The position numbers and the translations under genes are program-made. Positions 2,597-53,232 of a stretch of 57,291 nucleotides of DNA are shown here, piece by piece. Within the stretch, counting starts at the first letter, position 1, and each line of letters opens with the position of its first letter. The notes under the pieces were generated by a model that did not search any database, was not told the origin of the DNA, and saw only the letters and a list, made by a program, of their open reading frames with translations. Origin of the DNA: Candidatus Uhrbacteria bacterium (GTDB taxonomy: Bacteria > Patescibacteriota > Patescibacteriia > JACQRZ01); assembly GCA_016209345.1 (NCBI GenBank), contig JACQWH010000029.1:1-57291 (forward strand), in the 5' to 3' direction.

Positions 2597-4060
2597 TTAA
2601 TTTTTATAATACTTCGACTCTCTAACCATCTCTTCATCGACCTCCGCAGCTGAAAAATCATGCTTATTCGCTACATTCTCCTTATTTTTTTTAAAAAATA
2701 CAAAACTTTTCATCATCGGTTCATATCGATACCATGAATGCCATACTTCGTCCGATGCATTACTATAACCGACATAAAAAGATGACTTCACTTCATCCCA
2801 TCCGGTACCATCAACGTCAAAAAACGATATATCGTGTCCTCGAAAAGCAGGAGCCGGACCAGATATCCCCGGCTCACCACTATTTGGAATAGACACCCAT
2901 TCACCCCCTCTATTCTGCAAAACATAGACAATTTTTGCTTGCGCTGACACTCCCTCAATGATAATTGCTTGATTTCTTTTCCCGCTCGCAGAGATATGTT
3001 CATTGCTGATTTCTTGGGAATAAAACGTTACTGTATCATCTTTTTCTATACCATAAAAATTGTCACCATTACTATATCGTGTCGTTATTGGAGTTTTGTG
3101 AGTGATAATGCCCCGCGTTTCATTGAGTGTCAGAACGTATGTTGCGCCTTCTTCTTGCGATTGATCAAACGAAAGCCAGAACATACCGTTGCTTTGATAC
3201 GCATACGCACCAATGCCGATACTGACAACCAAAGATGCAAAAAAAATTGTAATGACACTCCATAGGAGCAAATTCTTATTTTTGCGATCAACCCCTTTAA
3301 GTGTATATGGCCGAACATCTTGTTTTATAAAGAGTATCGGCTTTTTTTCCAGTGTTATTCGTATATTCTCGATGCAGGGAGTACCATCGGCGACAATATC
3401 GATACGAAACGGCCTGGTGTTCTCCGTAAACTCCTTTTGAAACTCCTTTTTTTTGCCCTTAAGAATCTTACCGCACCAATACCACGCCTTGTGTGCATTC
3501 AAGTCCTCATTCTTCACGATCTTTCCATCAATCTTCAACTGGATGTCATCGTCGTCTTTTTTTGATTGCGGCGCCATGGCACTTATTGATACTGAAGCAA
3601 TGCCGAGCTCCTGGTATGTCATAAAAACAAGCCATGGCGTCCTGTCTCGCTTTTCTGTTTTGAGTCCATTGAGCTCAACTGTTTTGTTTTCGAGGAGATA
3701 CACCGCAATCGAGGAGAGCAGTGGCTTGCCAAGAACGGAAAAAGAAAGCGTCTGCGCTCCGGCAGAAAACGATGCAACAATATATGCCGTTTGCGCTGCG
3801 CCTTTCAAAATATTTCCGTTCCACAAATCATTGACAAGCAGTTTGTTTTTCCCTCGTATCGAAATAACGTTTTTATTGTTTATGAGCGGCGTCATGCTGT
3901 CTTTTTTCAAAAACGCTCGCCCATTCACCGTATTCTGCCACCAGCTTTTCGCGGATGCATGGATTTCAATACAGTACATACCAGCGACCTGCGCATCGAT
4001 GTTCACAGAGAAATCACTGTTCAAAAAAATGCCGTGCTGTTTGGAGTAAATTTTTTTCAT
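2597..4060 (-). CDS. Hypothetical single-pass membrane protein (orphan, AT-rich)
   Basis: 487-aa ORF with one central TM helix (LLLWSVITIFFASLVVSIGIGAYAY) and no family recognisable by eye. Visibly more AT-rich than the flanking pheT and pheS. Confidence 0.6.
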   Translation of the reverse strand: MKKIYSKQHGIFLNSDFSVNIDAQVAGMYCIEIHASAKSWWQNTVNGRAFLKKDSMTPLINNKNVISIRGKNKLLVNDLWNGNILKGAAQTAYIVASFSAGAQTLSFSVLGKPLLSSIAVYLLENKTVELNGLKTEKRDRTPWLVFMTYQELGIASVSISAMAPQSKKDDDDIQLKIDGKIVKNEDLNAHKAWYWCGKILKGKKKEFQKEFTENTRPFRIDIVADGTPCIENIRITLEKKPILFIKQDVRPYTLKGVDRKNKNLLLWSVITIFFASLVVSIGIGAYAYQSNGMFWLSFDQSQEEGATYVLTLNETRGIITHKTPITTRYSNGDNFYGIEKDDTVTFYSQEISNEHISASGKRNQAIIIEGVSAQAKIVYVLQNRGGEWVSIPNSGEPGISGPAPAFRGHDISFFDVDGTGWDEVKSSFYVGYSNASDEVWHSWYRYEPMMKSFVFFKKNKENVANKHDFSAAEVDEEMVRESKYYKN

Positions 4061-7599: not shown

Positions 7600-8184
7600 T
7601 TACTTCTTCGCGGAGGTGGCAAAATAATAGGTGTGCACCGAAAAACCTGCAACGTTGTTCGCCGGATCGAAAGAAAAGCTGTCTATCGTGGTGAGGCGGA
7701 TGTTCGACAAAAGCGCGGCGATGAGCCGCTGCAACCCGGCGTAGTCAACGTTGATAAATCGCAATGTAAGAGGGACCTCCCGTATTGCGCTTTTTGTGTT
7801 TTTTGCGTTTTCCGCGTTGTCTGAAATATCAATCACCTGCAAACCGACATCGACGTCTTTTGCTATTTTTTCAAACAGCGCGTACAGCGTGGGAATGTCT
7901 TTGTCTGTAGGAAGAATCATGGCAAGCGGATCCTGCTCGGCCTTTGCCGATGCGGTATAGAAGGCAAAAAGCCCCTTGAGGTCGTCACGGTATGCTTTCC
8001 TGCTTTTGAGCAATTCCTGTACGGACTCAACGTTGAGCGGCCCGCCCGCTATGTATTTTTGCAATTGGGGCTGAATGATATAGTAAAAAAACGAGACTAC
8101 AACCGCGGCAAAAATGCTCACGATGAGAAAGGGCGTAAGCGCCTCAAGGATACGAATGGATATTTTTTGCGTTTGGACCGTCAT
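7600..8184 (-). CDS. PilO-like pilus assembly protein
   Basis: The start was moved to MTVQTQ... to remove overlap with the upstream gene. N-terminal TM helix followed by a coiled-coil segment. Sits downstream of the pilM and pilN-like genes. Confidence 0.45.
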   Translation of the reverse strand: MTVQTQKISIRILEALTPFLIVSIFAAVVVSFFYYIIQPQLQKYIAGGPLNVESVQELLKSRKAYRDDLKGLFAFYTASAKAEQDPLAMILPTDKDIPTLYALFEKIAKDVDVGLQVIDISDNAENAKNTKSAIREVPLTLRFINVDYAGLQRLIAALLSNIRLTTIDSFSFDPANNVAGFSVHTYYFATSAKK

Positions 8185-14708: not shown

Positions 14709-15239
14709 ATGGAAGATACGTCTGAATTCCCCGACTCCCCTTCCTCGTCGCAATCGTCGCGTCGACAAATCATCCAACACATGAGTGTCGTCGAAAAGCA
14801 GATCCGCGAAGCCGAAAAAAAACAAAATCAGTTCAAGGATGAAGCGCGCGCCCACGAGCAGAAAAAAAATCTCTGCTCTGTTCTGGTTGGCGTTGCTATC
14901 GCAAACGACGGCATGACAGTACTCGCCGACGTCGTGAGCTTTGGGATGCTTGGGTCACTCACCGCTCCGACACCCGGCATACTGCGATTTATGGTATCGG
15001 CCTATGAACGAGAACAAAAGCCCGAACGCCTCCTGCGAACAGTTGCGGTGATGGGCTTGAAAGCAATACCGGTCATTAACGTCTTACCCGCGACTACATT
15101 TCTCATGGTTACCGATCTTGTTGAGGCAAGCGCAGACATGGACATGGCACGAAATAAAAAAGAGGCGCAGGAAAAGAAGATAAAAATTTTGCAGAATGAA
15201 TTGCGGCAGCTCCGAGTCGCGGGACAGCAAGCAGCGTGA
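14709..15239 (+). CDS. Hypothetical protein (coiled-coil ends, hydrophobic core)
   Basis: 176-aa ORF starting 12 nt after the Clp gene. Its last ~24 codons are duplicated in inverted orientation at 71..147. Confidence 0.55.
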   Translation: MEDTSEFPDSPSSSQSSRRQIIQHMSVVEKQIREAEKKQNQFKDEARAHEQKKNLCSVLVGVAIANDGMTVLADVVSFGMLGSLTAPTPGILRFMVSAYEREQKPERLLRTVAVMGLKAIPVINVLPATTFLMVTDLVEASADMDMARNKKEAQEKKIKILQNELRQLRVAGQQAA

Positions 15240-15262
15240 GGTGTGCACCATTTTTTGAAGTA

Positions 15263-16719: not shown

Positions 16720-16733
16720 ATGCAAATAAATTA

Positions 16734-16892
16734 CTTTGAATTACGAAACTACCAATAATGCCCCACGTTGTCATTCCCGCGAAGGCGGGAATCCAGTCCA
16801 TAAAATGATTTTTCTTGTTGGCTGGATCCCGGTCCCCGATCCAGTCGGGGACAGGCCCTCACGCGCCGGGATGACAGTTTCGTAATTCAAAG
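16734..16892. mobile_element. Type-1 MITE-like element (complete copy)
   Basis: Terminal inverted repeats CTTTGAATTACGAAAC / GTTTCGTAATTCAAAG. Internal hairpins TCCCGCGAAGGCGGGA and GGATCCCGG..CCGGGATG. No ORF. Copies at 1..40 and 35845..36018. Confidence 0.65.
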
Positions 16893-16921
16893 AAATTAAC
16901 CAAATTAGGTTAATTATTACC

Positions 16922-18130
16922 ATGAATATATCTCGTTCAGTTCACTTTATTGTCATTCTTGCAATGGCCGTCACCGCCCTTTTTGCTATCCCCGCCTTTG
17001 CCGCGCCACCTGCCGGTACCGGCAGCGTGCGCCTCTCCGGTGATACATTTCCGGATTTTACATTTCAGATACCGATTGGAAATATCGCCGTCATTAACAG
17101 CGATGAAATCGTCAACGGAACGGCAATCGCCATCTATATCGGCATCATCTATCAGTGGGCGGTGGCATTTGCGGCCGTATTGGCTGTCCTTGCGTTCACC
17201 TATGCCGGCGTGCTATGGCTTATTGCCGGCGGGGATAGCGGCAAAGTGACGGAATCGAAAAAAATCATGGGCAACGCGATCATCGGACTCCTGCTCGCGC
17301 TGGGGTCGTATGTGTTTCTCAACGCGATCAATCCAAATCTCGTTCATTTCCAGCCGCTCAAAGTACCGGCTGTCAAAACCATTTCCCTGAATCTTACCCC
17401 CGCGTCAATCACTTCCGGCGGCATCACGGCCACCTACGATGTCGGACATTTTACCGCTCTTGGATTTCCGGCGCCAAACACGGAGGATGACCCCGGTAAA
17501 AAAATCCCGCTCAAGGGTGAAGTTCTCAACAGATGGCAGACATTGCAGCCGCTCGCCATGAAAGCGGCCCAGGCAACCGGCACCGACGTTGGCTTTATCG
17601 GCATGTGGCCCCTCTATGAGAATGGATTTGATACATTTATGGACAACTGCCAAGATACGGACACCAATCAAAATACGCCGTGCAGCGCATGGGGAGACGG
17701 TTGGCAGGTTGGCCTTGGCGTTCATCCGGGCAATATGCTTTGGGCATACGATGGCGGCTTTACCGCGATGTACGGCGATGCAAGCGATGCCACCGTACAG
17801 AAAGTAGGACAAAGCGTTCTTGATGCCGCGAGAGCCGCGGGCAAACCGATTACCATTGTTTCCAATCCATTTCCAGCCGCTTCTCTTGCAACAACGATTC
17901 AGAGCGCAAAAAACGGAGATCAACAGGCCCGACTCCTTATCGCGACTCTTACGAAAGACCCTGCGCTGGGACTGTACCTTGTTGGCGCGCATTTCGGCTC
18001 ACGCGATCTGGGTGGCCGTGGAGCAGATCTTGCGCGCGTGATGGATATGTGGGATAAAAAGGAGAAGGATGGCTACTACCACCCCCAGCGTATCAGTAAT
18101 TATATTAAAGCGGTCTATGACGCAAAATAA
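16922..18130 (+). CDS. T4SS-pilin-like (TrbC/VirB2-like) domain fused to a C-terminal soluble domain (possible glycosidase/VirB1-like)
   Basis: Signal peptide, then two hydrophobic helices with the GDSGKVTESKK loop (IYQWAVAFAAVLAVLAFTYAGVLWLIAGGDSGKV...LLLALGSYVFLNAINPNLV), typical of CPR/Gram-positive T4SS pilin-like proteins. The ~230-aa C-terminal domain is unassigned. Confidence 0.6.
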   Translation: MNISRSVHFIVILAMAVTALFAIPAFAAPPAGTGSVRLSGDTFPDFTFQIPIGNIAVINSDEIVNGTAIAIYIGIIYQWAVAFAAVLAVLAFTYAGVLWLIAGGDSGKVTESKKIMGNAIIGLLLALGSYVFLNAINPNLVHFQPLKVPAVKTISLNLTPASITSGGITATYDVGHFTALGFPAPNTEDDPGKKIPLKGEVLNRWQTLQPLAMKAAQATGTDVGFIGMWPLYENGFDTFMDNCQDTDTNQNTPCSAWGDGWQVGLGVHPGNMLWAYDGGFTAMYGDASDATVQKVGQSVLDAARAAGKPITIVSNPFPAASLATTIQSAKNGDQQARLLIATLTKDPALGLYLVGAHFGSRDLGGRGADLARVMDMWDKKEKDGYYHPQRISNYIKAVYDAK

Positions 18131-19145
18131 AAACAAAACGGCAATAAAAAAATGCGTTCTCGCTTTTTTTGTATCGGCGGTTTTGGCTGGCGTTCTTTTT
18201 TCATCTTCGGTCAATGCCGCCGACAACATCACCGTCACGCTTCAGATCCCGATTATCGGAGAAACGAACGTTCCCGTATGCCAGACGACGATCGGACCGG
18301 GTGGAAATGAAATTCTTGAATGCACCGGCATTGCCCGATATATCGGTATTGTATATCAGTGGGCGGTCGCGTTTGCGGCCGTTTTGGCTGTCCTTGCGTT
18401 CACCTATGCCGGCGTGCTATGGCTTATTGCCGGCGGGGATAGCGGCAAGGTGACGGAATCGAAAAAGGTTATGGGCAACGCAATCATCGGCCTCCTTCTT
18501 GCGCTGGGGTCCTACGTGCTTCTCAATGCAATAAACCCGAACCTTGTCGGGTTTGACGTCCTTCGACTTCCGGGAATCGCAAAAATTGAGCTTGATCTTA
18601 AACAGGTCGAGGACCACGGAGAGGAAACCGGCGATACCGGAGGTGTCGGGGGAATAGAAATAGCCGGCGATGGCAACCTTGATCGCCTCGCCGGATTGGT
18701 GCGCGATAACAAGCAGTTTGGCCTTGAACCAAGCCACTGTCTTGGCTGGGTCCGAAGAGCGCTTGTCCACATCTACGGTGAAGCAAAGTTCGCCGGATCG
18801 CCGCTGATAGGATCGGGCGCGTATCCGGGCCTCGTTGCGAAAAAATTTCTGGATGCAAGCAAGTTCACCGTCGGACTCCAGGGCGTTAAAAATGGTGATG
18901 TTGTTTTTATGCAGACGCCAGGTTCGCATCTTATCGCCATCGGTCGTGATACGGATTTACCGGGATATTCTGTCACCCATATCGGCATTTACTATAATGG
19001 TTCTGTGTATCACCAATTCGGAAAAGCCCTGCGCATAAGCAAAGTCCAAAAAACCCCCTCCGTGGCAAATGAAGACAATGTATTTACTGAGTCGGAAGGC
19101 GCGAAAAAGCTAAAGGTCATCGGCTACGGAAGCATGGGGCTTTAA
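18117..19145 (+). CDS. T4SS-pilin-like domain fused to a CHAP/NlpC-P60-like peptidase domain
   Basis: Same pilin-like module as the upstream gene. The C-terminal domain has a candidate Cys (PSHCLGWV) and His (VTHIGIYYNG) arrangement. The start was moved to MTQNKNK with a signal peptide. Confidence 0.6.
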   Translation: MTQNKNKTAIKKCVLAFFVSAVLAGVLFSSSVNAADNITVTLQIPIIGETNVPVCQTTIGPGGNEILECTGIARYIGIVYQWAVAFAAVLAVLAFTYAGVLWLIAGGDSGKVTESKKVMGNAIIGLLLALGSYVLLNAINPNLVGFDVLRLPGIAKIELDLKQVEDHGEETGDTGGVGGIEIAGDGNLDRLAGLVRDNKQFGLEPSHCLGWVRRALVHIYGEAKFAGSPLIGSGAYPGLVAKKFLDASKFTVGLQGVKNGDVVFMQTPGSHLIAIGRDTDLPGYSVTHIGIYYNGSVYHQFGKALRISKVQKTPSVANEDNVFTESEGAKKLKVIGYGSMGL

Positions 19146-19153
19146 ATTATCGT

Positions 19154-19221
19154 ATGGCGACAACAATTTTCATCTGCTCGCAGTGCGATGCGCAAAGCCC
19201 AAAATGGGCCGGACGCTGTTT
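19154..19221 (+). pseudogene. Orphan duplicate of the radA 5' end
   Basis: ATGGCGACAACAATTTTCATCTGCTCGCAGTGCGATGCGCAAAGCCCAAAATGGGCCGGACGCTGTTT encodes MATTIFICSQCDAQSPKWAGRCL, against RadA MALSVYICSNCDAQSPKWAGRCL. Homology stops at 19221. Confidence 0.7.
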
Positions 19222-19253
19222 GTCAGGAAATAGTGGCAAGTCCGATTTTCTAC

Positions 19254-19931
19254 TCACATGCCGAGTTGATGGCTTCGAACGGCCTCGGTGATTGTCTTTT
19301 TGATTTTTTTCCACGTCACCGCTCTATCAAAAAGTTTTACTCTGTCAATATCGTCATCTTCCTCCGCGTCATTAAAATAGAGTAGCCCCCGAAGAAAAAA
19401 GAAGTGGTTATACATCGGATATTTTTCTAATCCGAAGCGGATCATCTCATCCAGTGAAAAAATGTGTAATAAATAATATATATCAACAAAATCTCGATGA
19501 CGACCACGTTGCGCTATTGCGATGAGCTTCATTGCCGCAATATCCTGCAACGATGCAACCAATACCCCCTGCATAGGTATTGGCGATGCAACAAGCGGAT
19601 ATTCATAATAGAAACAGCTCAAGTGAATATCCGGTTTTGCCAAAAGATCAAAATTATCCTTTATGTCACGCGTTATCTCAATCTGCCAACGTTCTGCCAT
19701 GTACGAATAAAAGAGTTTGCTCAATGTTCCTTTAGCAAAGTGGCGTTGCCGATAAAAATCAAAATCTACTGACGTCCGATGGCCAATCTGTAGTGCGAGC
19801 GCAGTCCCTCCGGCAAGATACATGCCCGTCTTTTTCGTCCACGTAAGCTGTGAAAAAAAACGAGCCCGTGCCGGTGAAAGGACACTGTCAATATAACATG
19901 TTTTCTGTTGTTTTCTGATCATCGTCTTCAT
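19254..19931 (-). CDS. Nucleotidyltransferase AbiEii/AbiGii-family toxin-like protein
   Basis: Has the N-terminal motif LAGGTALALQIGHRTSVDFDFY characteristic of the AbiEii family. 225 aa and AT-rich. Confidence 0.6.
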   Translation of the reverse strand: MKTMIRKQQKTCYIDSVLSPARARFFSQLTWTKKTGMYLAGGTALALQIGHRTSVDFDFYRQRHFAKGTLSKLFYSYMAERWQIEITRDIKDNFDLLAKPDIHLSCFYYEYPLVASPIPMQGVLVASLQDIAAMKLIAIAQRGRHRDFVDIYYLLHIFSLDEMIRFGLEKYPMYNHFFFLRGLLYFNDAEEDDDIDRVKLFDRAVTWKKIKKTITEAVRSHQLGM

Positions 19932-20251
19932 TTACTCATCTTTATTCGCGGCGGAGGAAGCCCTGTTGGCGTGAGAGAAAAAAGAGCTCGCGCATAATCT
20001 CCCTTCGATGGTTGGACATTATATATGGTGGTCCAATAAACAAGCGCATCCTCGCGCCATATTCCACGCGCTGGATATTTGATATACTTTATGAGTGTTC
20101 TCCTGGAAAATGTCCTTAATGCCCATTGAATCTGCTTCCATGTTCCGTAATTTAAAATTTGCGGAATAATGGTTCCTGCGTGCTTTCGCGCATCTATAAG
20201 CGAAAGGTCATACGACCAAAGCGCTGATTGTAAAAATTTTGGTACCGCCAT
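19928..20251 (-). CDS. Small partner protein of the AbiEii-like gene (putative antitoxin)
   Basis: 107 aa, with a 4-nt ATGA overlap onto the downstream toxin-like gene. The LWSYDLSLID...NYGTW...W motif recalls a family often found upstream of AbiEii-like genes (from memory, unverified). Confidence 0.5.
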   Translation of the reverse strand: MAVPKFLQSALWSYDLSLIDARKHAGTIIPQILNYGTWKQIQWALRTFSRRTLIKYIKYPARGIWREDALVYWTTIYNVQPSKGDYARALFSLTPTGLPPPRIKMSK

Positions 20252-20287: not shown

Positions 20288-21685
20288 ATGGCTCTTTCTG
20301 TCTATATTTGTTCAAACTGCGACGCGCAAAGCCCTAAATGGGCCGGACGCTGTTTGGAATGTGGCGGATGGGGAACGTTGTCGCAAGGCGTCGCTGACGG
20401 ACAAAAGAAAGCGACATCAACCGCTGCTCCAGCCGATGCTACCCCCTTCTCGCAAATCTCTCACGAAGATGTCCCGCGTCGCTCAACCGGCATTGCCGAA
20501 GTTGATCAGGTGCTTGGCGGCGGCATTGTTCCGGGGAGCTTGATTCTGCTCGGAGGAGAGCCGGGGATCGGGAAGTCAACTCTGCTTGGGGAAATCGCTT
20601 TGAAAATGGGGTCAGGCACAAATTCTCTTCGCGAAATTGAGCCAGACCCCATTTTCTACTGTTCGGGTGAAGAATCGGCACAGCAAGTCAAAATGCGGTT
20701 TGACCGCCTGATGTCATCCCGAGCGCAGTCGAGGGATCTGCTCTTCATCGGCGAAACGAATTGCGAAAAAATTTGTAGCGCACTCCGCCATCACAAGCCG
20801 GCGCTTGCCATTGTTGACTCCATACAAACGATCGCGTCATCAGATATTCCATCTGAAGCGGGAAGTATCGCACAAGTGCGCGCGTGCACTGTCAAACTCC
20901 TTGAAGTTGCAAAACAGGAAAACATCCCAATCATTATTACCGGCCACGTCACGAAAGAGGGTGGCGTTGCGGGTCCCAAAACACTCGAACACTTGGTAGA
21001 TACCGTCCTGTATCTTGAGGGTGATGCGAGCCAGTATTTTCGCCTTCTCAAAACAGTAAAAAACCGCTTCGGCTCAACCAACGAAATAGGTGTCTTTGAA
21101 ATGACGGGTCAAGGACTTGTCGAGGTAAAAAATCCATCGGAACTGTTTCTTTCGTCGGACAGCGAACACGCGGCGGGCACTGCGACCACCTGCGTCGTGG
21201 AAGGATCGCGCGCCTTTCTCGTTCCCATTCAAGCATTGACGAGCAAAACCTACTTTGGGTATCCTCAAAGAAAAAGCATCGGCATCGATGCAAACCGGCT
21301 GGGACTTCTTGTCGCGGTGCTTTCAAAGCGACTCGGCGTCAATCTCGGCGATCAAGATATTCACGTCAACGTTGTCGGCGGATTGAAAATCAGCGAGCCG
21401 GCAGCTGACTTAGCGGTGTGCGCCAGCATCTTGTCCTCATACAAAAACAAAATGGTGTCTGGTTCCATTTCTTCAAAAATGGTACCTGACACCATTTTGC
21501 CGACTATTTTCTTTGGCGAAGTGGGTCTCACCGGCGAAGTGCGGCCCGTGAGCCATACCGAGAAACGACTCAAGGAGGCGGAAAAGCTCGGCTTCAAGGT
21601 TGCGTATATTCCAAAACAATCAAAGAAAATCTCAACAAGTATTCAGCTTGTTGAGATTAAAAACATTCGCGATCTCGAAATTTAG
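20288..21685 (+). CDS. radA: DNA repair protein RadA
   Basis: N-terminal zinc ribbon (CSNCDAQSPKWAGRCLECGGWG), Walker A GEPGIGKST, the KNRFG motif and a C-terminal Lon-like domain. Confidence 0.95.
   Translation: MALSVYICSNCDAQSPKWAGRCLECGGWGTLSQGVADGQKKATSTAAPADATPFSQISHEDVPRRSTGIAEVDQVLGGGIVPGSLILLGGEPGIGKSTLLGEIALKMGSGTNSLREIEPDPIFYCSGEESAQQVKMRFDRLMSSRAQSRDLLFIGETNCEKICSALRHHKPALAIVDSIQTIASSDIPSEAGSIAQVRACTVKLLEVAKQENIPIIITGHVTKEGGVAGPKTLEHLVDTVLYLEGDASQYFRLLKTVKNRFGSTNEIGVFEMTGQGLVEVKNPSELFLSSDSEHAAGTATTCVVEGSRAFLVPIQALTSKTYFGYPQRKSIGIDANRLGLLVAVLSKRLGVNLGDQDIHVNVVGGLKISEPAADLAVCASILSSYKNKMVSGSISSKMVPDTILPTIFFGEVGLTGEVRPVSHTEKRLKEAEKLGFKVAYIPKQSKKISTSIQLVEIKNIRDLEI
20602..20656 (+). repeat. 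In-frame palindromic insertion element P1 (55 nt)
   Basis: GAAAATGGGGTC...GACCCCATTTTC has 12-nt terminal inverted repeats. It is 100% identical to P3 in recG and encodes (K)MGSGTNSLREIEPDPIF just after the RadA P-loop. Confidence 0.8.
21448..21499 (+). repeat. In-frame palindromic insertion element P2 (52 nt)
   Basis: CAAAATGGTGTC T GGTTCCATTT CTTC AAAATGGTACC T GACACCATTTTG is a nested palindrome. It encodes KMVSGSISSKMVPDTIL in the RadA Lon-like domain, where E. coli RadA is about 12 aa shorter (from memory). Confidence 0.7.
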
Positions 21686-29190: not shown

Positions 29191-31323
29191 CTACTCAAGA
29201 TGCACCGTACCCTGGAATTTTATGATATGATCTTTCAGTTCCGGATACGTTTCAAGAATGCCGACATACTCTTGCGCATACGTTCGTGCTTTTTCAATGA
29301 GCTCGGTATCAAACAATGTTGCGATTTTTAAGCTTGGCATACCGGACTGGCGCAAGCCGCGGACATCACCCTCTCCGCGCAATTCGAGATCTTTCTCGGC
29401 CAACGCAAAGCCGTCATTAGAGGCAACAACCGCTTTGAGGCGCGCAATCTGCTCCCTCTCCTCATTGGTTGGAGCCAAGAAGCAATACGACTGGTGCTCC
29501 GCTCTTCCGACGCGTCCGCGCAATTGATGAAGCTGTGCGAGGCCGAATCGTTCCGCGCCTTCAATAAACATCACGTTGGCATTTGGTACGTCAACGCCAA
29601 CTTCTACGACCGACGTTGTGACAATGATATCGACTTCATGGTCGCGAAATGCGGTCATGATCCTCTCTTTGTCGGCTGGCTTCAGCTTGCCGTGGAGCAT
29701 GGCAACGCGTTCGCATCGAAACGGTCCCTCTGTCAGCCGCTTATATTCCTCGGTCACCGACCGTACGCCAAGCGTGTCTGTAGGATTGATAATGGAACAG
29801 ATAACAAATGCCTGCCGTCCCCTGCCGATCTGTTTTCGGATAAAATCATAGGTCCATCCGCGATAGGATTGAGGGACGATTTTTGTAATGATTTTCTTTC
29901 GCCCTTTGGGCAGGGAGCGGATGGTGGAAATATCAACATCGCCATATACCGTAAGAGCGAGCGAGCGCGGAATGGGCGTCGCGGTCATCGACAACAAGTG
30001 CGGCATCAGTGAGTCGCGATTTTTTTCCCGCAGAACCTTTCTCTGCATGACACCGAAACGATGTTGTTCGTCTATGACTGCGAGCGCAAAATTTTTGAAA
30101 AAAATCTTTTCTTGCAAAAGCGCGTGCGTGCCGATGATGATATCAACACCACCGGTTGCTATCGTAGCTCTTACTTCTTGATTCTTAATTCTTGATTCGT
30201 GATTCTGCGCTGTCAAAAACGCAATGCGAACATCAAAATCCGCAAACAGCTTTTTTAATGTAGTAAAATGTTGCCGCGCCAATACTTCCGTCGGCGCCAT
30301 AAGCGCGCACTGATACCCCGCGCGCACGACGTTAAGCATCACCAGTACGGCGACAATGGTCTTCCCTGCGCCGACATCCCCTTGAAGCAGACGATTCATG
30401 GGCATTGAATGTTCGATATCGCGAAAAATCTCCCACGCCACTTCCTTCTGTTCTCTTGTCAGAGAAAACGGCAAAGATGCGATGAATGTTTTTGTCGCCT
30501 TCGCATCAAAAGGAATGGCGTGCGCAGACAGTTTCGCAAGCGAGTTTTTTACTCTTAAACTTGAGAGCTGATAAAGAAATAATTCTTCGAATTTGAATCG
30601 CCGCTCTGCGGCACGCGCATCCTCCAACCGATCCGGAAAATGAATATCCTCAAGCGCGTCGTATAATGAGGTCATCTGCTCGTTTGCAAGCAGATGGGCG
30701 GGAAGCCATTCACGTACGTCGCCACCACCACACGCATCAAGAGCGTTTCTCATGAGTGTTCGGAATTGTTTCTGGGTGATGCCGGATGGAAGCGAATAAA
30801 CCGGCACCAGGCGAGCGGTATGGAGGAAAATGGGGTCTGGCTCAATTTCGCGAAGAGAATTTGTGCCTGACCCCATTTTCTCATATACAGGACTGACCAT
30901 CTGAAGATCATAGTAACTATCGTTGGTCTTCCCGCTCAGAGAAACATATTCCCCGACATGAAGATTTTTTATCAAAAACGGCTGATTGAACCATATCGCC
31001 TTTATACTCCCGCTCTCGTCAGATATGAGCGCCTCCGTGACGATCATGCGCCTGTTCCGCGATCTTCTATTGCCAATCATATCAATACGCCCATGGATTG
31101 TTGCGCGTGTTCCGATGCTCAGATCGGCAATGGACGCGCTGTATGAAAAATCGTCGAACCGATAGGGAAAATAAAAAATGAGATCCTTGCAGGTCTCAAT
31201 TCCCATCTTCGCTAATTGCTTTTGGAGTACTGTGCCCACTCGAGGCAAGCTCGAAACGGGCATGTCGCTATCCGCCATACGCATTATGAGAGTGGTGAAA
31301 AATAGCTTCCCGGTCAGTTCCAT
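29191..31323 (-). CDS. recG: ATP-dependent DNA helicase RecG
   Basis: Wedge domain plus SF2 helicase motifs (GDVGAGKT, DEQHRFG, SMTATPIPR, the TTSVVEVGVDVPNA region, HQLRGRVGR). The true start is probably a downstream Met (MADSD or MPVSS). Confidence 0.9.
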   Translation of the reverse strand: MELTGKLFFTTLIMRMADSDMPVSSLPRVGTVLQKQLAKMGIETCKDLIFYFPYRFDDFSYSASIADLSIGTRATIHGRIDMIGNRRSRNRRMIVTEALISDESGSIKAIWFNQPFLIKNLHVGEYVSLSGKTNDSYYDLQMVSPVYEKMGSGTNSLREIEPDPIFLHTARLVPVYSLPSGITQKQFRTLMRNALDACGGGDVREWLPAHLLANEQMTSLYDALEDIHFPDRLEDARAAERRFKFEELFLYQLSSLRVKNSLAKLSAHAIPFDAKATKTFIASLPFSLTREQKEVAWEIFRDIEHSMPMNRLLQGDVGAGKTIVAVLVMLNVVRAGYQCALMAPTEVLARQHFTTLKKLFADFDVRIAFLTAQNHESRIKNQEVRATIATGGVDIIIGTHALLQEKIFFKNFALAVIDEQHRFGVMQRKVLREKNRDSLMPHLLSMTATPIPRSLALTVYGDVDISTIRSLPKGRKKIITKIVPQSYRGWTYDFIRKQIGRGRQAFVICSIINPTDTLGVRSVTEEYKRLTEGPFRCERVAMLHGKLKPADKERIMTAFRDHEVDIIVTTSVVEVGVDVPNANVMFIEGAERFGLAQLHQLRGRVGRAEHQSYCFLAPTNEEREQIARLKAVVASNDGFALAEKDLELRGEGDVRGLRQSGMPSLKIATLFDTELIEKARTYAQEYVGILETYPELKDHIIKFQGTVHLE
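30826..30880 (-). repeat. In-frame palindromic insertion element P3 (55 nt)
   Basis: The reverse complement is identical at 55/55 positions to P1. It sits in the same codon phase and encodes the same peptide, (K)MGSGTNSLREIEPDPIF, in the RecG N-terminal region. Confidence 0.8.
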
Positions 31324-35844: not shown

Positions 35845-36018
35845 CTTTGAATTACGAAACGCCACTTTTGTCATTCCGACCCCGTTCGGCTCACGGTGCT
35901 GTTCGCTCAGGGCAAGCTAGTAAGAAGTGGAGGAATCTATGCAGTTGAAAGGAAAATGTAGATCCCTCGACTTCGCTCGGGATGACAACACGGGCGTTAT
36001 TGCAGTTTCGAAATTCAA
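35845..36018. mobile_element. Type-1 MITE-like element (third copy)
   Basis: CTTTGAATTACGAAAC...GGGATGACAACACGGGCGTTATTGCAGTTTCGAAATTCAA. Its right end matches window bases 1..40. Confidence 0.6.
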
Positions 36019-37415: not shown

Positions 37416-37450
37416 TTAGGGGTTAGGGGTTAGGGGTTAGGGGTTAGGGG
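37416..37450. repeat. (TTAGGGG)x5 tandem heptamer
   Basis: Five perfect units. The sense strand (CCCCTAA)n supplies the last codons and the stop of the VirB4-like gene (..QTPNP-stop). Confidence 0.9.
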
Positions 37451-40400
37451 TCTGCCTCTTCTCATCTTCAAACTCCTTCTTTGCCGCCTCTATTTCCAGG
37501 AGTTGGCGCGGATCGGTGGTGATAAGCTGGTCTTCGGAATACGATGCAACCACCTTGATGGCAACATGTTTTGACCCGGCAAAGAAAATCCCTTCGCCCG
37601 GCCCTCCTTCTAATAATAGATACTTCTCACCCTCTGTCAATAAGAAGGTCTTTTGTACCGCATCGATCGCTGCCGATGATTGTTTGAGCAGAAGTTGAAT
37701 GGCCGAATTTGTCAGGATGGCGCGGCCGTATTGCGAGTTGAGAAAATCATTAACGTCCTGCGTAATGGTCGTCACTCCCAGATAATATTTGCGGCACCGC
37801 TTGGCAAGCGCAAAAATAAATCTGGCTGAGTCCTCATGCTGCATGAGCCACCACGCCTCGTCGATGACCAAAATCCTGCGCTTGATTTGAGATCGCACGA
37901 CATTCCAGATGTAGTTGATGATGGTGTAGATTGCGATAGGGCGCAGCTCGTCTTCCAAGTCGCGCACGGAGAACACGACAAGCTGGTTTTTTGTCTCGAC
38001 ATTCGTCGGCTTATTGAGCAGCCCCGCAAACGTCCCTTCGGTATATTTTTTCAGCTTTCCGGAAAGTCCCGCGCCGCCCTCCATGCCATCGAGCACATCC
38101 TGCAAATCGGTCAGTGTTGGGGGCTCAACGCCGGCGGACAGATCGGTTTGCGGCGTAATGTCTTTCTTCGCGTAGGCCTCCAGGAGCGCGCGATCAATAG
38201 TCGAATCCTCTTCTTGAGAAAACGCTCCCAGCATCAGCCGCATCAGCCCCTTGAGCGTAATGACCGCACTGCGAATAATGTCGGCGGTCGATACTTGCTC
38301 GCCAACCGGCCGCGGCAGATCAAACGGATTGATGCGACTTGTCGAGGAAAGAGATATGTTGACATAGGTACCCCCCACCGCATCGCAAAGATGCTTATAT
38401 TCGCGCTCCGGGTCTATCACCATAATCTCGGTTCCCATCATCATCGAGCGTAAAATTTCCAATTTTATGGCAAACGAGTTGTGTACAAAAAGTCCGCCGT
38501 GTCCTGCAAGAAACACTTCATTGTCGACGGTAAGATCGTACACGTACCGATCGGTATTTTTTATTCTTTTTATTGACGCTATTGGATCCCATATCAGATC
38601 GGCATCTGCAAGATTCTTCAGCTTTGCAATGAGCGCCTTCACGCGAGGAAGGCGAGACGCAATGCGCTGGTATTCGGATAATACATGGTGCGCAGCACTG
38701 CGCAACCGGCCGTATCGCATGTCGCCCCTCTCGCAAAGCCCCGTACGAAGAGAGCGATCGAAATCCTTCATCGAAAGGTTAAGCTGTCGAAATCCATAAT
38801 GAACAGCGTGCTTTACTTGTTCAAAATCTATGCTGTTGTACGAACTATATGACCACGCCCTCAATACATTTGTCGCGTACGGTGATACCCTCTGCTGCTT
38901 TATGTTGTTCCAGGTATGCCCCATCTCTTTCCAAAGAATGCCGTTTGTATTCTTATCGCAAACCCCCATGCCGATAACGGATGACATGTGGGGAAGCGCG
39001 GCTAACACCTCAAGCTCGTCTCTCAATACCTCAAAACGCCGCACCGCCTCATTCATCTGATCAATGACGGCATGGAGCTTCTCGCGCGATGGCTGATACG
39101 ACCCGTTTTTCAGCTCAATACAGTCCTGCATGCCGCGCAGATGAGATGGCAAAAGTTCATAGAGCTCCTGAAAAACGGTTTGGACGGGAATGGTGTCACT
39201 ATTTGTGTTGCTCTTCAAACCGAGAAGCCGCTTCAGCTTTGTATTCTTGCGTTGTGTGACAAATCCTATCGACTCAGCGTAGCGTGAAAGGTTTTCTTGG
39301 CCTGAAAGCGATAGCTGCCAATATGTTCTTCGCGTCTTCCTTGCGGTGTTGGTTGCATATTTATTTTTCTTCGACAAACGAACATGAATACCAAAACGAA
39401 GAAATACATATGCGAGATCGGAAACAAGCGCTTTTGATTTTGAAGTGGCGGTGACGGCATGGTTCTCGGCACACCCGTCTCCTTCAAAATAGGCCTTGAG
39501 AAATTCTGACAGTATGGACGATGACGCCCCAAACAATACTCCGGGAATTCGTTTGTCCGCTGATGTTTTTCCAATACCAAGCGCTTTAATATATTCCACG
39601 ATTACCCGACCGTGAATAACAAATGAGCCATCATCCTTGCGACGATAAAAAGAAAATCCTAGAGTGTTCAGACAATGGATAATATCGCTAACCACCGGTT
39701 TGTCCTCGTTTGAAATAAGAATATACCGTTCACGAATCGCGCCTTCACTCACAATATACCCCATCAATCGAGCTAATTCTGCCGTGAGATGCATAATGGG
39801 CGGCAGTGATGTCCCCTTCAAGCTGGTTGTCTTTGAACACAACCGAACTTCGGAATAGACGGCATGCGGATCAATGCCAAGATACGCAAGTATTTTCGAG
39901 AAATACCCAAGCGGAATCAGGCGACCGGTCCTATAGTTGTACCGGTAGCGATCAAAACGAGGATCGATGATCGCCCCTGCAAGGCGCGCGTAGTTCCTGG
40001 CTAGTACATACTGCCCGCCATCTATGTAGATTCTGCTATTATTCTCCAGCACTGCATATATGTCTTGCGTCGTGGTCGGATGTTCCGACTCCGACAACTC
40101 TCGTGCGAGAGGAATTGATTCGCCCGCGGAAATATCGGCACTCTTGTCTGCAACGACGACTCCATTGCGCAACACGAGCATATTATGGTCGCCCGTCACA
40201 GTAATTTCGCGCCCGCTCTTCATGGTAAACACGAAGAGATCGTCCGGCGCTTCTTTCCGAGCGGCGATGCTCACCGGGCTCCATTCGCCTTTTAATTCTT
40301 TATTAAAAGAATAGACCTGAATACCCGGATCAACGACACCTTCAAGATCATCATCGATCTTCTCAAAAACATGCTTTCTGGCGAGCGCGTCGATGGCAGG

Positions 40401-42516: not shown

Positions 42517-42529
42517 AAATTAATTTTTC

Positions 42530-42655
42530 TGATCACTGAAACCTGATCACTGAAACCTGATCACTGAAACCTGATCACTGAAACCTGATCACTGAAACCT
42601 GATCACTGAAACCTGATCACTGAAACCTGATCACTGAAACCTGATCACTGAAACC
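42530..42655. repeat. (TGATCACTGAAACC)x9 perfect tandem 14-mer
   Basis: 126 nt made of nine identical units. Each unit contains the palindrome TGATCA (with GATC) and TGA triplets on both strands. Confidence 0.95.
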
Positions 42656-43110
42656 TAAAACAACTCCGTCTCCTTCTCCTTTGCTTCACCCATATATGCC
42701 CCTCCGGTATCGACAATAAGCGCGAGATCGGCGAGCCGATGCCCGCTCACGCGCGGCGGTAAGGGCGGCGGGGTTTCCTTCAAGGCCTTTTCCTCCTTCG
42801 TCTCTTTTGCCGTGTGAATGACGCGGCGCACATCCTTTCTCCATACGCGCAGTGTCGGCCGGCTTGCCGTGCGCAGCGTATTGAGGAGAAAAAAATGGAA
42901 GGGCTGTCCGTTGATCCGCACAAACCCAAGCACGCCCGCGCATCCCCCGACAAGAATGGCGACAAAAATGAAGGCGGTCAGGTCTGTTGTTTTGTACGCA
43001 ACGAACAACAGCGCGCAGGCAACGAGGATGATCACAAACTGCCGAACGGTAATCGGCCCGAGTATGCGGTCTTCATTTTCAATAAATTGCGGAACGGTTA
43101 TTTGGTCCAT
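42655..43110 (-). CDS. PrgI-family (VirB3-like) T4SS membrane protein
   Basis: The start was moved to MDQITVPQFIENEDRILGPITVRQF, followed by two TM helices, the pattern typical of PrgI-family proteins. Confidence 0.65.
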   Translation of the reverse strand: MDQITVPQFIENEDRILGPITVRQFVIILVACALLFVAYKTTDLTAFIFVAILVGGCAGVLGFVRINGQPFHFFLLNTLRTASRPTLRVWRKDVRRVIHTAKETKEEKALKETPPPLPPRVSGHRLADLALIVDTGGAYMGEAKEKETELF

Positions 43111-43135
43111 GTCAACAAGAATTAAGAAACAAGAA

Positions 43136-43531
43136 TTAAGAATTACGAACAATCGATTTTGTGCCCTTAATAAGCCCGTTTGTTATTTTACTTACTGTTA
43201 TAGTATGCTGTGCGAGCGCTTGAAATATCTCCTTTTCAATATATCCGATATCACGCGCAATGAGTAACTGATTCTAAACTTCTGTAAGTGATCCGAGTGC
43301 TATCGAGTAGAACTGTGCCTTCTCCTTATATGACCCCCTGCCAAAACCCTCAGCAATGTTTGATGTTAATGAAACGGCAGCCCTACGAAGTTGATTTGTT
43401 AACCCAAACTGTTCTTCCTTTGGAAAGGATTGGGTTATCTTGTATATTTTCAGAACAAGGGTGTGGCCTTCTTGCCATGCTTTCAAATCTGTAAATGACC
43501 GGATCGTATGCTTGCTTAATTCTTGATTCAT
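43136..43531 (-). pseudogene. Four-helix-bundle protein, copy 2, with one in-frame TAG
   Basis: An 85-aa ORF, then TAG (43274..43276), then 45 more in-frame codons (NQLLIARDIGYIEKE...IVRNS-stop). The TAG aligns with Gln (CAG) of copy 1 (GAELQTQ against LTEV*NQ). Confidence 0.7.
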
Positions 43532-43586: not shown

Positions 43587-46049
43587 CTAGAACCGTAGCT
43601 TTTCATTCAACTCCAACAGCGCGTCAAACTCTTCCGCCGTGAGATATTCTTTTCCGGCTGTTTTTCTTTCTTCAACCAGCTTGTTCATATCCACGCCGAT
43701 ATTGATTTGCCCAATCTCAAGATAGAGCGCGTAGACATCGCTTTCCTTCCATGCCTTTATCGCTTCTGCCTTTTTCGTCAGCGATTGTTTTTCAAGCGCC
43801 TGAATTTTTTCATAGATACGCTTTACCGACTCTTTCGGGTCTTGGGAAAGCCGGCGAAAATCCTTAATGGTAAGCGCGCGAATCTCATCAATCACGCCAA
43901 CGAGCCGCGGCGCTGCTTTCACATCCGCAACTTTCGTTTTCGGGGCGCCCGCCGTCGGCGTTGCGCGAACCGTCACGGGAATGGGAATAGGTTTCAGGTT
44001 ATAGGTTTCAGGTTTCAGGGGGGGTGCAGTACTAGGGGCTAGGGTAGAGGGTTTAGGGGTTAGTTGGGGACCAACAGGGGTTGCGGGTGGGGTCTGTACC
44101 TCCCCTTGATTCGTGATTCTTGATTCTTGATTCTGTCCCGTGATTCGTGATTCTTGATTCTGCCCCTGCCCTCCTCTTGCCTCCCCTTGATTCGTAATTC
44201 GTGGTTCTTGATTCGTGATTCCTGTTTCCTGTTTCTCCGTCTTTTCCAGCGATAATTTTTCGTTTTTCATTTTTCGTTTTGCGCTTGACTGCACCAGCAT
44301 CGGCACGCCATCCACTTCTTTAATGACCATCACTGGCTCAGGTTTCAGGTTATAGGTTTGAGGTTTCAGGGGTGGCTCAGGAACAGGTTGCAGGTCATAG
44401 GTTTCAGGTTTCAGGGATGGTGTGGCTGACCCCATTTCTGCCATTGATTCGTGATTCGTGATTCTTGATTCCTGCTTCTGTGCCCCCCCTTGATTCGTGA
44501 TTCTTGATTCCTGATTCTGCCCCGTGATTCGTGATTCCTGCTTCTGTGCCCCCCCTTGATTCGTGATTCGTGATTCTTGATTCTGCCCCGTGATTCTTGA
44601 TTCTTGATTCTGCCCCGTGATTCCTGAATCGTAAAGCTGTTCTAACCCCTTCCCCGCCACAATCGCCTGCGCTGCCACGTTCGCCTCTTTCAAAAGTTTC
44701 TCGGCATCCTCAGGAGACAATCCGGCGCCGCCATCGGCAAGCGCCGCTTTCAGCCGTTCGCTCGTATCAATACTGTTGCGAATATTGCGCACGCGCGATG
44801 AAAGAATCGGCTTTACCCGGCTAGTGACATCGTCGGAAAGTTTTACCGCAGCCGCCTCAAGAATATGTGTGATAACCCTGTCATAATCAACCACCAAGGC
44901 AGGTTGTAGGTTGTAGGTTGTAGGTTGTAGTAAGGGCTCGGGGTGTACCGACGCCACGGCAGCAACGTCATTGCGGGGAAGCGCAGCGACCGCAGGGAGA
45001 GATCCCTCTTTCTCTTGATTCGTAATTCGTGATTCTTGATTCTGTCCCGTGATTCTTGATTCTTGATTCTGTCCCGTGATTCTTGATTCTTGATTCTGTC
45101 CCGTGATTCTTGATTCTTGATTCTGTTCCTCCCCCGGCACCCCCGGCAGCTCTCGCGCGGTTTTCGCCTCAAGTTCCGCCAAGTGATATGGGATAACCAT
45201 CCAGTGTTCCGGCGATGTCTTCTGAAAACTTTCCGGAAAATTTTTCAACACCGTAAATGTTTCAAACAGCCGCCGCAATGCCTCTTTGTCCTTTTCCGAT
45301 AGCTTCTTTGCGTTCGCGTTATCTGTCATGTACTGCGCGATTTTAATGCTTGACGCAGTCCCGCCGGAAAATCCCAAAAGATCCTGAATCCAATTGCCAA
45401 CGGTCGGCGGCTGCCCGTCTTTTTCCCCAACGCGCATCGTCTCTTTGCCAATATGCTCCTCGTTTGCGTAGAGCGATTTAAGAAGCGTATCAACGAATCC
45501 CTCGATGTTTGAAATGAGAAAAATGATGGTGTTGTTCAGTGACACTTTGTACGGATCGTCGGGGGCATAAAAATGACAGGTAAGATTTTTCTCAAAAAGC
45601 GCCGCCATGTCTACCGCTCCCTTTTCTCTATTGGCATCAAGATCTTCAATCTCTGCCGCTTTTTCGCGCAACGCCTCATTTATCGTTTTCAACAACAATG
45701 GCATGGTCTTGCTCTCTTCAAGCGCTTTTTCCGGATCACCGTATTTTTTTTGAAAATACTCAATGTGATTCCCAAAAAAATCAATAAATGGCAGAACGAG
45801 ATTAATAAAAAATGTCCGCTCGAGTGCTGTTGCTTGCTCCTCCGAAATGCCCAAACGCTGCAAAAATATTCCCCTAAGATCTTCAGGCCGTATATTTTTT
45901 TTGAACAATTCCTCAATGATATCATTGAGAGCATCCTGCTCCTTTGTAAAAAGATTGAGCTGCGACTTTACCGAATCTATCCAATAATAAAACTCCGGCG
46001 ACAGTAAAATCGATCGAATATATTGTGGTATGTTTTCAAGATATGACAT
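43587..46049 (-). CDS. 820-aa protein with globular ends and long low-complexity repeat linkers
   Basis: Long ORF in operon orientation. The N-terminal ~290 aa and C-terminal ~120 aa look globular. The middle is made of GQNQESRIT, PETYNLKP and P/T/A-rich repeats. Confidence 0.6.
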   Translation of the reverse strand: MSYLENIPQYIRSILLSPEFYYWIDSVKSQLNLFTKEQDALNDIIEELFKKNIRPEDLRGIFLQRLGISEEQATALERTFFINLVLPFIDFFGNHIEYFQKKYGDPEKALEESKTMPLLLKTINEALREKAAEIEDLDANREKGAVDMAALFEKNLTCHFYAPDDPYKVSLNNTIIFLISNIEGFVDTLLKSLYANEEHIGKETMRVGEKDGQPPTVGNWIQDLLGFSGGTASSIKIAQYMTDNANAKKLSEKDKEALRRLFETFTVLKNFPESFQKTSPEHWMVIPYHLAELEAKTARELPGVPGEEQNQESRITGQNQESRITGQNQESRITGQNQESRITNQEKEGSLPAVAALPRNDVAAVASVHPEPLLQPTTYNLQPALVVDYDRVITHILEAAAVKLSDDVTSRVKPILSSRVRNIRNSIDTSERLKAALADGGAGLSPEDAEKLLKEANVAAQAIVAGKGLEQLYDSGITGQNQESRITGQNQESRITNQGGAQKQESRITGQNQESRITNQGGAQKQESRITNHESMAEMGSATPSLKPETYDLQPVPEPPLKPQTYNLKPEPVMVIKEVDGVPMLVQSSAKRKMKNEKLSLEKTEKQETGITNQEPRITNQGEARGGQGQNQESRITGQNQESRITNQGEVQTPPATPVGPQLTPKPSTLAPSTAPPLKPETYNLKPIPIPVTVRATPTAGAPKTKVADVKAAPRLVGVIDEIRALTIKDFRRLSQDPKESVKRIYEKIQALEKQSLTKKAEAIKAWKESDVYALYLEIGQINIGVDMNKLVEERKTAGKEYLTAEEFDALLELNEKLRF
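45029..45129. repeat. 27-nt tandem repeat (GTGATTCTTGATTCTTGATTCTGTCCC) x3 plus a shortened unit
   Basis: Units at 45049..45075 and 45076..45102 are identical, and 45103..45129 has one mismatch. The sense strand encodes (TGQNQESRI)n. Confidence 0.9.
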
Positions 46050-52586: not shown

Positions 52587-52798
52587 ATATGATTGCGCAA
52601 TGATGATCGAACCTTCTTTGCCGCGGACTCATCTGCTTTGTTCTGCAGTGCGGCAATATCCTGCATATATGTTTTCTTAAGCGCGCGAATATCCGCATCA
52701 TATGCTTTTGCGGCGTCTTTCAGTGCGTCTAATAATTGCCTTTCGGTCATGTGCCCGGTTTTCATAGAAAAATTGGTGATAATGTATGATAATGGCAA
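52583..52798 (-). CDS. Small coiled-coil protein (start uncertain)
   Basis: 71-aa ORF translationally coupled to the 484-aa gene. Alternative starts at 52765 or 52750. Confidence 0.45.
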   Translation of the reverse strand: MPLSYIITNFSMKTGHMTERQLLDALKDAAKAYDADIRALKKTYMQDIAALQNKADESAAKKVRSSLRNHI

Positions 52799-52799
52799 T

Positions 52800-52818
52800 A
52801 ATGGGGTCAGTCCCCATT
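52800..52818. repeat. 19-nt palindrome AATGGGGTCAGTCCCCATT resembling fused termini of the P1/P3 element
   Basis: The left half AATGGGGTCAG is identical to the P1 left end, and the right half CCCCATTT resembles the P1 right end. It overlaps the HepT-like stop codon. Confidence 0.5.
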
Positions 52819-53232
52819 TCGTTCAACCATGCGTTCTATGACGGCAACGTAATCTTGTATGTCTTCCTTTTCGCGTCCTATCATCCTCAGCATGAGTTCT
52901 CTATCAACTGTCTCATATCGATGTACGAGCCGATTGCGCAACCCAACAATTGGGGCGAGGCGCTCGGCTAATTTTTCTGACACTATATTGTTGTCCGCAA
53001 GTACCCGAAATGTTGATTGAAAATCATCGGGAACCGAGAATGCTAAGGCACTGATAAGATGATTATTCATATCAATGACCTCATCGACGATGAGCTGAAT
53101 CACACGTTCAACGGCATAGTAAAAAAAGATTTTTCGAGACATACCATCCGCCATTGCCAAAAGCTCAGTCAAATCATTATAATACCCTCTCACTCGTTCA
53201 ATGCGTCTTTGGAGAAAAATTTTATCGATCAT
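52807..53232 (-). CDS. hepT: HepT-like (DUF86/HEPN) RNase toxin
   Basis: R-x4-H HEPN motif in GLRNRLVHRY. 141 aa. 4-nt overlap with the upstream nucleotidyltransferase gene. Confidence 0.75.
   Translation of the reverse strand: MIDKIFLQRRIERVRGYYNDLTELLAMADGMSRKIFFYYAVERVIQLIVDEVIDMNNHLISALAFSVPDDFQSTFRVLADNNIVSEKLAERLAPIVGLRNRLVHRYETVDRELMLRMIGREKEDIQDYVAVIERMVERNGD

Follow-up and report, generated by a model that had tools for sequence, protein, structure and literature searches.

The window, by which we mean the whole stretch of DNA analysed, is 57 kb of a contig from a metagenome-assembled genome of Candidatus Uhrbacteria, a member of the candidate phyla radiation (CPR, Patescibacteria). 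Two DNA-repair genes in it, radA and recG, contain short palindromic elements, designated P1 and P2, that lie in frame within the coding sequence. The neighbouring genes encode PheRS, type IV pilus proteins, ClpB, a cluster resembling a type IV secretion system (T4SS) and toxin–antitoxin pairs. The two host genes and their elements are as follows.

20288..21685, + strand: radA, host gene, intact, with Zn ribbon, RecA-like ATPase and Lon-like domain; three palindromes inside
20602..20656, + strand: P1, 55 nt, in the radA loop after the Walker A helix (site 1); encodes KMGSGTNSLREIEPDPIF; covariance model 66 bits, E 2e-16
21448..21499, + strand: P2, 52 nt, in a loop of the radA Lon-like domain (site 3); encodes KMVSGSISSKMVPDTIL; covariance model 74 bits
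21500..21511, + strand: degenerate extra right arm CCGACTATTTTC, directly 3' of P2; native codons GTT GTT ATC replaced
29191..31323, − strand: recG, host gene, intact, with all domains; P1 inside; heptamer-repeat segment at 30162-30209
30826..30880, − strand: P1, 55 nt, in the recG wedge-domain loop between YEK and LHTARLVPVY; encodes KMGSGTNSLREIEPDPIF

The sequence of P1 at 20602-20656 is GAAAATGGGGTCAGGCACAAATTCTCTTCGCGAAATTGAGCCAGACCCCATTTTC. The copies in radA and recG are identical at 55 of 55 positions and are exact reverse complements on the + strand. With radA on the + strand and recG on the − strand, both are in the same sense and codon phase of their host gene and encode the same peptide, and the identity between the two genes ends exactly at the 55-nt borders. 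Such identity between two unrelated genes points to recent copying. The arm of P2 differs from that of P1 by a G to T change, compensated by C to A in the opposite arm (GGGG/CCCC versus GGTG/CACC), and the P2 apex is in reverse orientation relative to the P1 apex. In the family alignment this variable pair is GC in four sequences and UA in four. A preliminary description of this DNA had reported the two identical 55-nt copies with their shared sense, phase and peptide, as well as the related 52-nt element with one compensated arm change, and both reports were confirmed.

P1 and P2 share the termini GAAAATGG.../...CCATTTTC and a terminator-like shape of A-tract, GC-rich stem and T-tract. Folded, the three window elements are long hairpins with energies of −28 to −29 kcal/mol; compared with dinucleotide shuffles, the z-scores are −5 to −8. 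A covariance model, R1, was built from nine clade members and run on the window, its relatives and unrelated radA contigs; it found exactly three full copies in the window, the two of P1 and the one of P2. Two smaller segments had also been proposed as a diverged half-copy and a minimal palindrome of the family. Both segments exist, but their scores were not significant and their membership is uncertain.

44421..44439, − strand: possible solo arm AGAAATGGGGTCAGCCACA, inside an 820-aa repeat protein; 15/18 matches to the 18 nt at the start of P1; not significant (E about 2.8)
52797..52820, no strand assigned: possible minimal family member AATGGGGTCAGTCCCCATT, overlapping the HepT stop codon, as is typical for the family; not significant (E about 2)

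Alignment of RadA (n=25) and RecG (n=23) homologues limited the inserted segments to a few close relatives. The length of RadA site 3 was counted in 103 homologues and is 13 residues in 101 of them, being longer only in the window (25) and in L121 (30), the sister genome. Codon alignments of the window with six related contigs (L121-L127) showed no insert at radA site 1 in L121, L125 and L127 and none at radA site 3 in L122 to L127. L124, L125 and most RecG homologues have an empty recG site. The preliminary description had called for such a comparison of orthologues, and most of them do lack the inserts.

These data also bear on the idea that the segments are a protein-level feature, either a selected loop module or an ancestral loop, or else an assembly artefact. 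The encoded peptides are rich in Gly, Ser, Pro and Asp, are compatible with loops and always use one phase, as a protein-level feature would. Against this, 55 nt are perfectly identical between unrelated genes, the segments are absent from orthologues, the DNA is palindromic with compensatory changes, and the same family has intergenic members. Furthermore, at the same loops, assemblies obtained independently from other samples have palindromes that are related but not the same, and a 55-nt repeat is probably shorter than a typical read, which makes misassembly unlikely. We regard a protein-level origin or an artefact, both of which the preliminary description had raised against itself, as largely refuted and scarcely credible; its argument that the nucleotide identity does not reflect protein-level conservation was upheld.

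To place the segments in the proteins, RadA was modelled with AlphaFold (AF2) from 103 sequences, giving a mean predicted local distance difference test (pLDDT) score of 86. In the model, site 1 lies between H96-108 and E122-125 with a pLDDT dip to 70, a second segment (loop 2) lies between H131-141 and E151-154 with a dip to 70, and site 3 lies between H371-386 and E406-408 with a pLDDT of 55 at residues 391-400. The three radA segments are thus predicted to be loops between secondary-structure elements, at local dips in confidence. In comparison with solved structures, the inserts are gaps: +9 and +12 residues against RadA 5lkm, and +7 against RecG 1gm5. This agrees with the earlier expectation of surface loops. 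At radA site 1, the element ends in I-F, and these two residues take the position of the native V-I in the β-strand before YCSGEES, so translation through the element appears to be needed for the fold. Splicing or intein-like removal is disfavoured by this replacement and by the element length of 3n+1.

The post-Walker-A loop is also variable in other CPR RadA proteins (P0070, P0112, P0056, P0063 and P0011), which have inserts of 8-25 residues there. These inserts read like translated simple intergenic repeats, for example NSKFEIRNSS, CQMSNVRQMS and TSASLGMT. Judged from these sequences, in-frame colonisation of this RadA loop may be general in CPR.

Both host genes show further irregularities. 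A truncated duplicate of the radA 5' end (MATTIFICSQCDAQSPKWAGRCLSGN*) is located at 19155-19235, with 51 nt that are 86% identical to 20306-20356. Between this remnant and the full radA lies an AbiEii/DUF6922 toxin–antitoxin cassette (19254-20251), and it looks as if the cassette was inserted at the radA start and duplicated it. The same cassette precedes radA in L124, but not in L121, L125 or L127. In recG, heptamer repeats of the AATCAAG/AATCACG type are present in frame in a second variable loop (QNHESRIKNQE, 30162-30209), and other RecG orthologues carry different inserts in this loop. Many heptamers of this type are found in the 820-aa repeat protein (44090-45127), and they also occur between genes at 43117-43157.

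Model R1 found about nine further copies in 91 kb of close relatives and one match in a negative control of 873 kb of radA-containing contigs, in which RadA is only ~50% identical (from a RadA-protein metagenome scan). Four of the copies are in L121: radA site 3 and recG each have one, that in recG being decayed, a third overlaps a stop codon (3640-3694), and the fourth is flanked by convergent genes (7908-7956). L122 and L123 carry one radA copy each, and L124 has a minimal copy 3' of a gene end. Another relative, L027, has one copy within the central loop of an MFS-type transporter (KMVSGIVSAKTIPDTIF), which shows that the elements are not specific for repair genes. The impression of the preliminary description that they sit in such genes was therefore correct for all window copies and not for the family as a whole. 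Rfam contained no family matching the hairpins, and a literature search by sequence string returned nothing relevant.

The subfamilies conserve the 12-15 nt at the base of the arms, and the apex differs yet stays palindromic. Compensatory double changes, including GGGG/CCCC versus GGTG/CACC, occur in 10 of 21 stem pairs, which indicates that the hairpin is required. Decayed copies in L121 recG and at L123 site 1 argue that it is not needed once the element is inside a gene. All nine copies have a length of 3n+1 (49, 52, 55 or 58 nt), and every genic copy uses a single phase, K-M-G/V-S-G...P-D-P/T-I-F. As to the other two phases, ENGV always contains a stop, and KWGQ...LTPF is usually open and is never used.

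The third palindrome in radA, which the preliminary description of two elements in this gene had not included, belongs to a second family. Two copies are located in the window.

20714..20738, + strand: second-family palindrome TCATCCCGAGCGCAGTCGAGGGATC, filling radA loop 2 (MSSRAQSRD); loop length almost unchanged
35961..35985, − strand: second-family palindrome, intergenic copy; 0 mismatches to a search pattern with one free position, none expected by chance

The two copies differ only at the free position of the pattern. In L121, radA loop 2 contains a different member, ATCCCGGCCTGCGCCGGGAT. The second family has the form TGTCATCCC-[variable palindrome]-GGGATCCAG, and it has the same architecture and the same post-gene position as the P1/P2 family and is found in the same Uhrbacteria genomes. 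A further dispersed intergenic repeat (GGGCGTTATTGGCAGTTTCGTAATTCAAAG...) is present at 11-45, 16729-16763, 16872-16915 and about 35985-36015, the last copy adjoining the intergenic second-family palindrome.

The borders of the elements provided clues to how they spread. No target-site duplication was observed; the elements are flanked by TT/TA and GA/CT, and codons of the native loop are absent, not duplicated. Elements of 52-55 nt result in a net gain of only +24 to +36 nt, with 15-31 nt of native loop codons missing, and in radA loop 2 the palindrome takes the place of the native loop. The in-frame translated segments had earlier been described as inserted; the segments are real, but insertion is too simple a description of them. 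The left junction is at a native A-rich Lys codon at the recG site (GAR AAA) and at radA site 3 (AAC AAA), and in every genic copy the A-tract supplies an in-phase AAA codon for Lys. The same loops are occupied repeatedly. At radA site 1, the window has P1, L122 has another subfamily and L123 has a decayed copy; here the window is most like L122 by sliding identity, a signal too noisy to claim a recombination tract. At the recG site, the window has P1, L121 has a decayed copy with a duplicated arm, L210 has a perfect 15-bp palindrome and L211 has another palindrome.

Tandemly duplicated arms were found at L121 radA site 3, in L121 recG, at L121 7740-8000 and in other phyla. At L121 radA site 3, a full extra right-arm copy, CCAGACACCATTTTG, is followed by CCGACTATTTTC, the segment that is also present in the window. 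The region L121 7740-8000, between convergent genes, is made up almost wholly of partial arms in tandem (CAGAAATGGTG..., ATAATGGGGTCAG..., CTGACCCCATTAT...) that surround one full palindrome, and it looks like a site of repeated arm slippage. Furthermore, the element at L121 radA site 3 is the exact reverse complement of window P2 over 50/50 nt, with the same flanks. The radA genes of the two genomes are only 78.6% identical at the DNA level, and the upstream flank is diverged as far as the border of the element. Identity this complete suggests constraint, conversion or a recent exchange between co-occurring populations. Taken together, the missing target-site duplication, the replaced codons, the duplicated arms and the flipped identical copy favour templated or slippage-driven, replication-linked spread over classical transposition.

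Quasipalindrome template-switch mutagenesis (Ripley; Lovett and colleagues) denotes a process of mutation rather than a family of elements. It yields flipping of the centre between perfect arms, duplication of arms and symmetrised apical changes, and would thus explain the inverted asymmetric centres, symmetrised apices and duplicated arms seen here; these require no recombinase. Quasipalindrome template switching is not known to place a copy of a palindrome at a new locus.

The stability and conservation of the stems could also mean that the hairpins are functional cis-elements, with the peptide as a tolerated by-product. At the RNA level, RadA and RecG expression might be tuned by attenuation or termination coupled to translation, by RNase targeting or by pausing of the ribosome; at the DNA level, the hairpin might be a structure-specific site for protein binding or recombination. 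The very stable stems, of −28 to −36 kcal/mol and well below shuffles in energy, the compensatory changes that preserve the hairpin and the complete conservation of the flipped P2 between genomes differing at 21% of radA positions are in line with this. So are the terminator positions of the relatives and the location of all window copies in DNA-repair genes, where intragenic repetitive extragenic palindromes (REPs) are also often found (PMC3733652). However, most orthologues, including close ones, have no insert, the type of element at one loop varies between lineages, copies decay in sister genomes and one copy is in an unrelated transporter gene. In the test for intrinsic terminators, A- and T-tracts flank the GC-rich stem, but a simple scan called neither P1 nor P2 because the T-run is paired within the stem. 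On balance, a cis-acting function appears improbable.

The 14-nt arm AAAATGGGGTCAGA recurs in terminator-position palindromes of many phyla. The pattern AAAATGGNGTC-N20-45-GACNCCATTTT was scanned over 185,579 species genomes and matched at least 120 loci. Among the matches listed, the hosts are Rheinheimera, Massilia, Pseudoduganella, Omnitrophota, Anaerolineales, Planctomycetota, Nitrospirota and other CPR; there are several copies per genome, and the inner sequences are genus-specific. Conservation exceeds the required pattern, as the free base is G in 79% of the 112 unique matches listed, and the next three bases are AGA or AGG in 70% of them, compared with about 3% expected. Of the listed loci with moderate G+C content, 23 are between convergent genes, 20 between tandem genes and 1 between divergent genes, and many of the listed look-alikes have a stop codon at a distance of 0-10 nt on either side. 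REPs and bidirectional terminators occupy such positions. No gene family recurred beside the look-alikes at the 120 loci among the matches listed, and the hypothesis of a neighbouring transposase was therefore rejected; likewise, no parent insertion sequence was found in the window or beside these loci. In viral contigs, the pattern gave 1 match and two composition-matched controls gave 1 and 0, which is uninformative as a control. The P1/P2 family is not phage-borne.

Since the elements in radA and recG have inverted-pair, terminator-like architecture and positions, we also considered that they might be uptake-signal-like or conversion-promoting sequences that help genome-maintenance genes to be transferred or restored through transformation and homologous recombination. 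Such a role has been proposed in Neisseria and Haemophilus for DNA uptake sequences (DUS/USS) that occur as inverted pairs. The patch of identity between the two co-occurring genomes, which is limited to the element and about 20 nt, and the pilus/competence-type gene neighbourhood of the window would suit this proposal. Unlike uptake sequences, the arm motif shows no excess of single copies: the window has 11 matches (≤2 mismatches) versus 6.5 expected, and in the Rheinheimera, Massilia and Uhrbacteria loci essentially every occurrence of the 10-mer is a palindrome arm. They occur about once in 10-20 kb rather than about once in 1 kb. A role as uptake sequence was rejected because the arm motif is not over-represented, and the proposal as a whole is very improbable.

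In our view, P1 and P2 are probably copies of a selfish, non-autonomous, REP-like hairpin repeat, resembling also MITEs (miniature inverted-repeat transposable elements), whose usual home, in the Uhrbacteria clade as for the look-alikes in many phyla, would be directly after stop codons. New copies would be templated on existing ones by a hairpin-dependent process and so reach open reading frames (ORFs). The likeliest route would be replication-associated template switching or short-patch conversion starting at A-rich microhomology; an unseen trans-acting single-strand transposase of the HUH/RAYT type (RAYT, REP-associated tyrosine transposase) is the alternative. Genic copies would survive only in tolerant surface loops, where they keep the reading frame and use the Gly/Ser/Pro/Asp-rich phase, and would be translated as part of RadA or RecG. 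In essence, they would be passengers, selfish or neutral, and would decay with time. The comparisons above document that the elements form a family, were recently copied, are absent from orthologues, lie in loops and are read through in frame, and that arms are duplicated, a copy is flipped and some copies are decayed; the copying mechanism and the lack of host benefit are what we infer from them.

Several results weigh against this explanation. The Pfam scan of the window ORFs found no transposase of any kind and no RAYT gene, and none recurs beside the family members listed. All three window copies are in two DNA-repair genes whose combined share of the coding sequence is about 7%, as estimated from gene lengths, and this concentration exceeds what random survival predicts. 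The 50/50 identity of the flipped P2 across radA genes that are 78.6% identical does not fit neutral decay. A word-index search of a protein database with the encoded peptides gave only 4 word-sharing candidates, none with E ≤ 10, which means that the number of in-frame copies is low. Finally, replacement of codons is indistinguishable from insertion followed by deletion.

A wider reading, which we consider doubtful, is that the elements are merely those members that reach coding regions of a large, as yet undescribed class of hairpins, which would propagate themselves at terminator positions and have the base AAAATGGGGTCAGA / TCTGACCCCATTTT and a fast-evolving palindromic apex. The base is common to Proteobacteria, Omnitrophota, Chloroflexota, Planctomycetota and CPR, and the second family, TGTCATCCC...GGGATCCAG, has the same architecture. 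If true, it would imply either a conserved structure-specific activity on the hairpin base, attC-like or RAYT-like, or universal replication-linked copying, and the link between palindromic repeats and DNA-repair genes could become testable.

Rickettsia palindromic elements (RPEs; Ogata et al. 2000) are summarised in PMC10969869 as in-frame palindromic selfish repeats of ~150 bp that are found in unrelated, often essential genes, are translated and occupy fold-compatible positions, with intergenic copies as well. On that summary, the elements described here are similar in being hairpin-forming palindromes that lie in frame in unrelated ORFs, have no stop codon and are absent from orthologues. 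They differ in their size of 49-58 nt and their CPR host, as the preliminary description had correctly remarked; this comparison covered length, host lineage, folding and reading frame. Further differences from that summary are that palindromes at terminator positions in many phyla have the same arms, that the elements take the place of native loop codons and that different elements use the same loops.

The likeness to RPEs that had been proposed holds for a mobile in-frame palindrome, and intragenic REPs are a close precedent as well. REPs of the GTAG/CGTC super-families are palindromes of 20-40 nt located mostly after gene 3' ends or between convergent genes; a minority is inside ORFs, many of them in genes of DNA synthesis and repair, and REPs occupy about the same recB site in two Xanthomonas species (Di Nocera et al. 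2013, PMC3733652). The P1/P2 family resembles them in its position, both in L121 and in the 23, 20 and 1 look-alike loci among the matches listed, and in having some copies in repair genes. In contrast to REPs, P1 and P2 have no GTAG or CGTC tag at either end, no RAYT was found among the Pfam-scanned window ORFs, and the elements are 49-58 nt long, with a conserved base, a hypervariable apex and a length of 3n+1 in all clade members.

MITEs and terminator-like repeats (Correia elements, SPRITE/BOX/RUP and intragenic ERIC) are small non-autonomous inverted repeats, some of them terminator-like and some fused in frame to ORFs (PMC10969869, PMC3184786, PMC3049150). The elements described here are much shorter, have no target-site duplication and form a single hairpin over their whole length, whereas MITEs have two terminal repeats around a core. 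Integron attC sites are alike in architecture only, with a conserved base, a variable palindromic centre and strand-marking mismatches, but no R or L cores (GTTRRRY and its inverse) are visible in P1 or P2. In-frame palindromic selfish DNA, as summarised for RPEs (PMC10969869), and intragenic REPs in repair genes (PMC3733652) were already known. New are the CPR host, a distinct family with a cross-phylum arm, the 3n+1 length together with a single phase, the re-use of hot-spot loops, the replacement of codons and the flipped identical copy in an orthologue.

CPR genomes are tiny, and mobile elements are thought to be scarce in them. Nevertheless, essential repair proteins tolerate, and repeatedly re-acquire at the same loops, passengers of 17-19 residues, and the inserts mark where RadA and RecG naturally permit insertions. 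In annotation, inserts of this kind make CPR proteins look more diverged than they are and can mislead alignments and phylogenies. The repeated association with repair genes, which is also seen for REPs, could be addressed with these genomes.

Other repeats and rearrangements were observed elsewhere in the window. A 77-nt inverted duplicate, 94% identical, is located at 71-147 and 15164-15240; one copy forms the last 25 codons of ORF 14709-15239, and the other is immediately 3' of the pheT stop codon. A TraG/VirB4-like ATPase (37437-41306) is interrupted by an intein with a LAGLIDADG domain, and the same arrangement was found in L124. The adjacent T4SS-pilin-like ORFs 16922-18130 and 18069-19145 share 241 nt at 84% identity (17103-17343 versus 18307-18547) and are tandem paralogues. 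Tandem short repeats are present between genes, upstream of coding sequences, at window 37417-37447 and 42529-42656 and at L121 3725-3770. These include telomere-like GGGGTTA heptamers, found in the sister genome too, and nine copies of the 14-nt unit CTGATCACTGAAAC.

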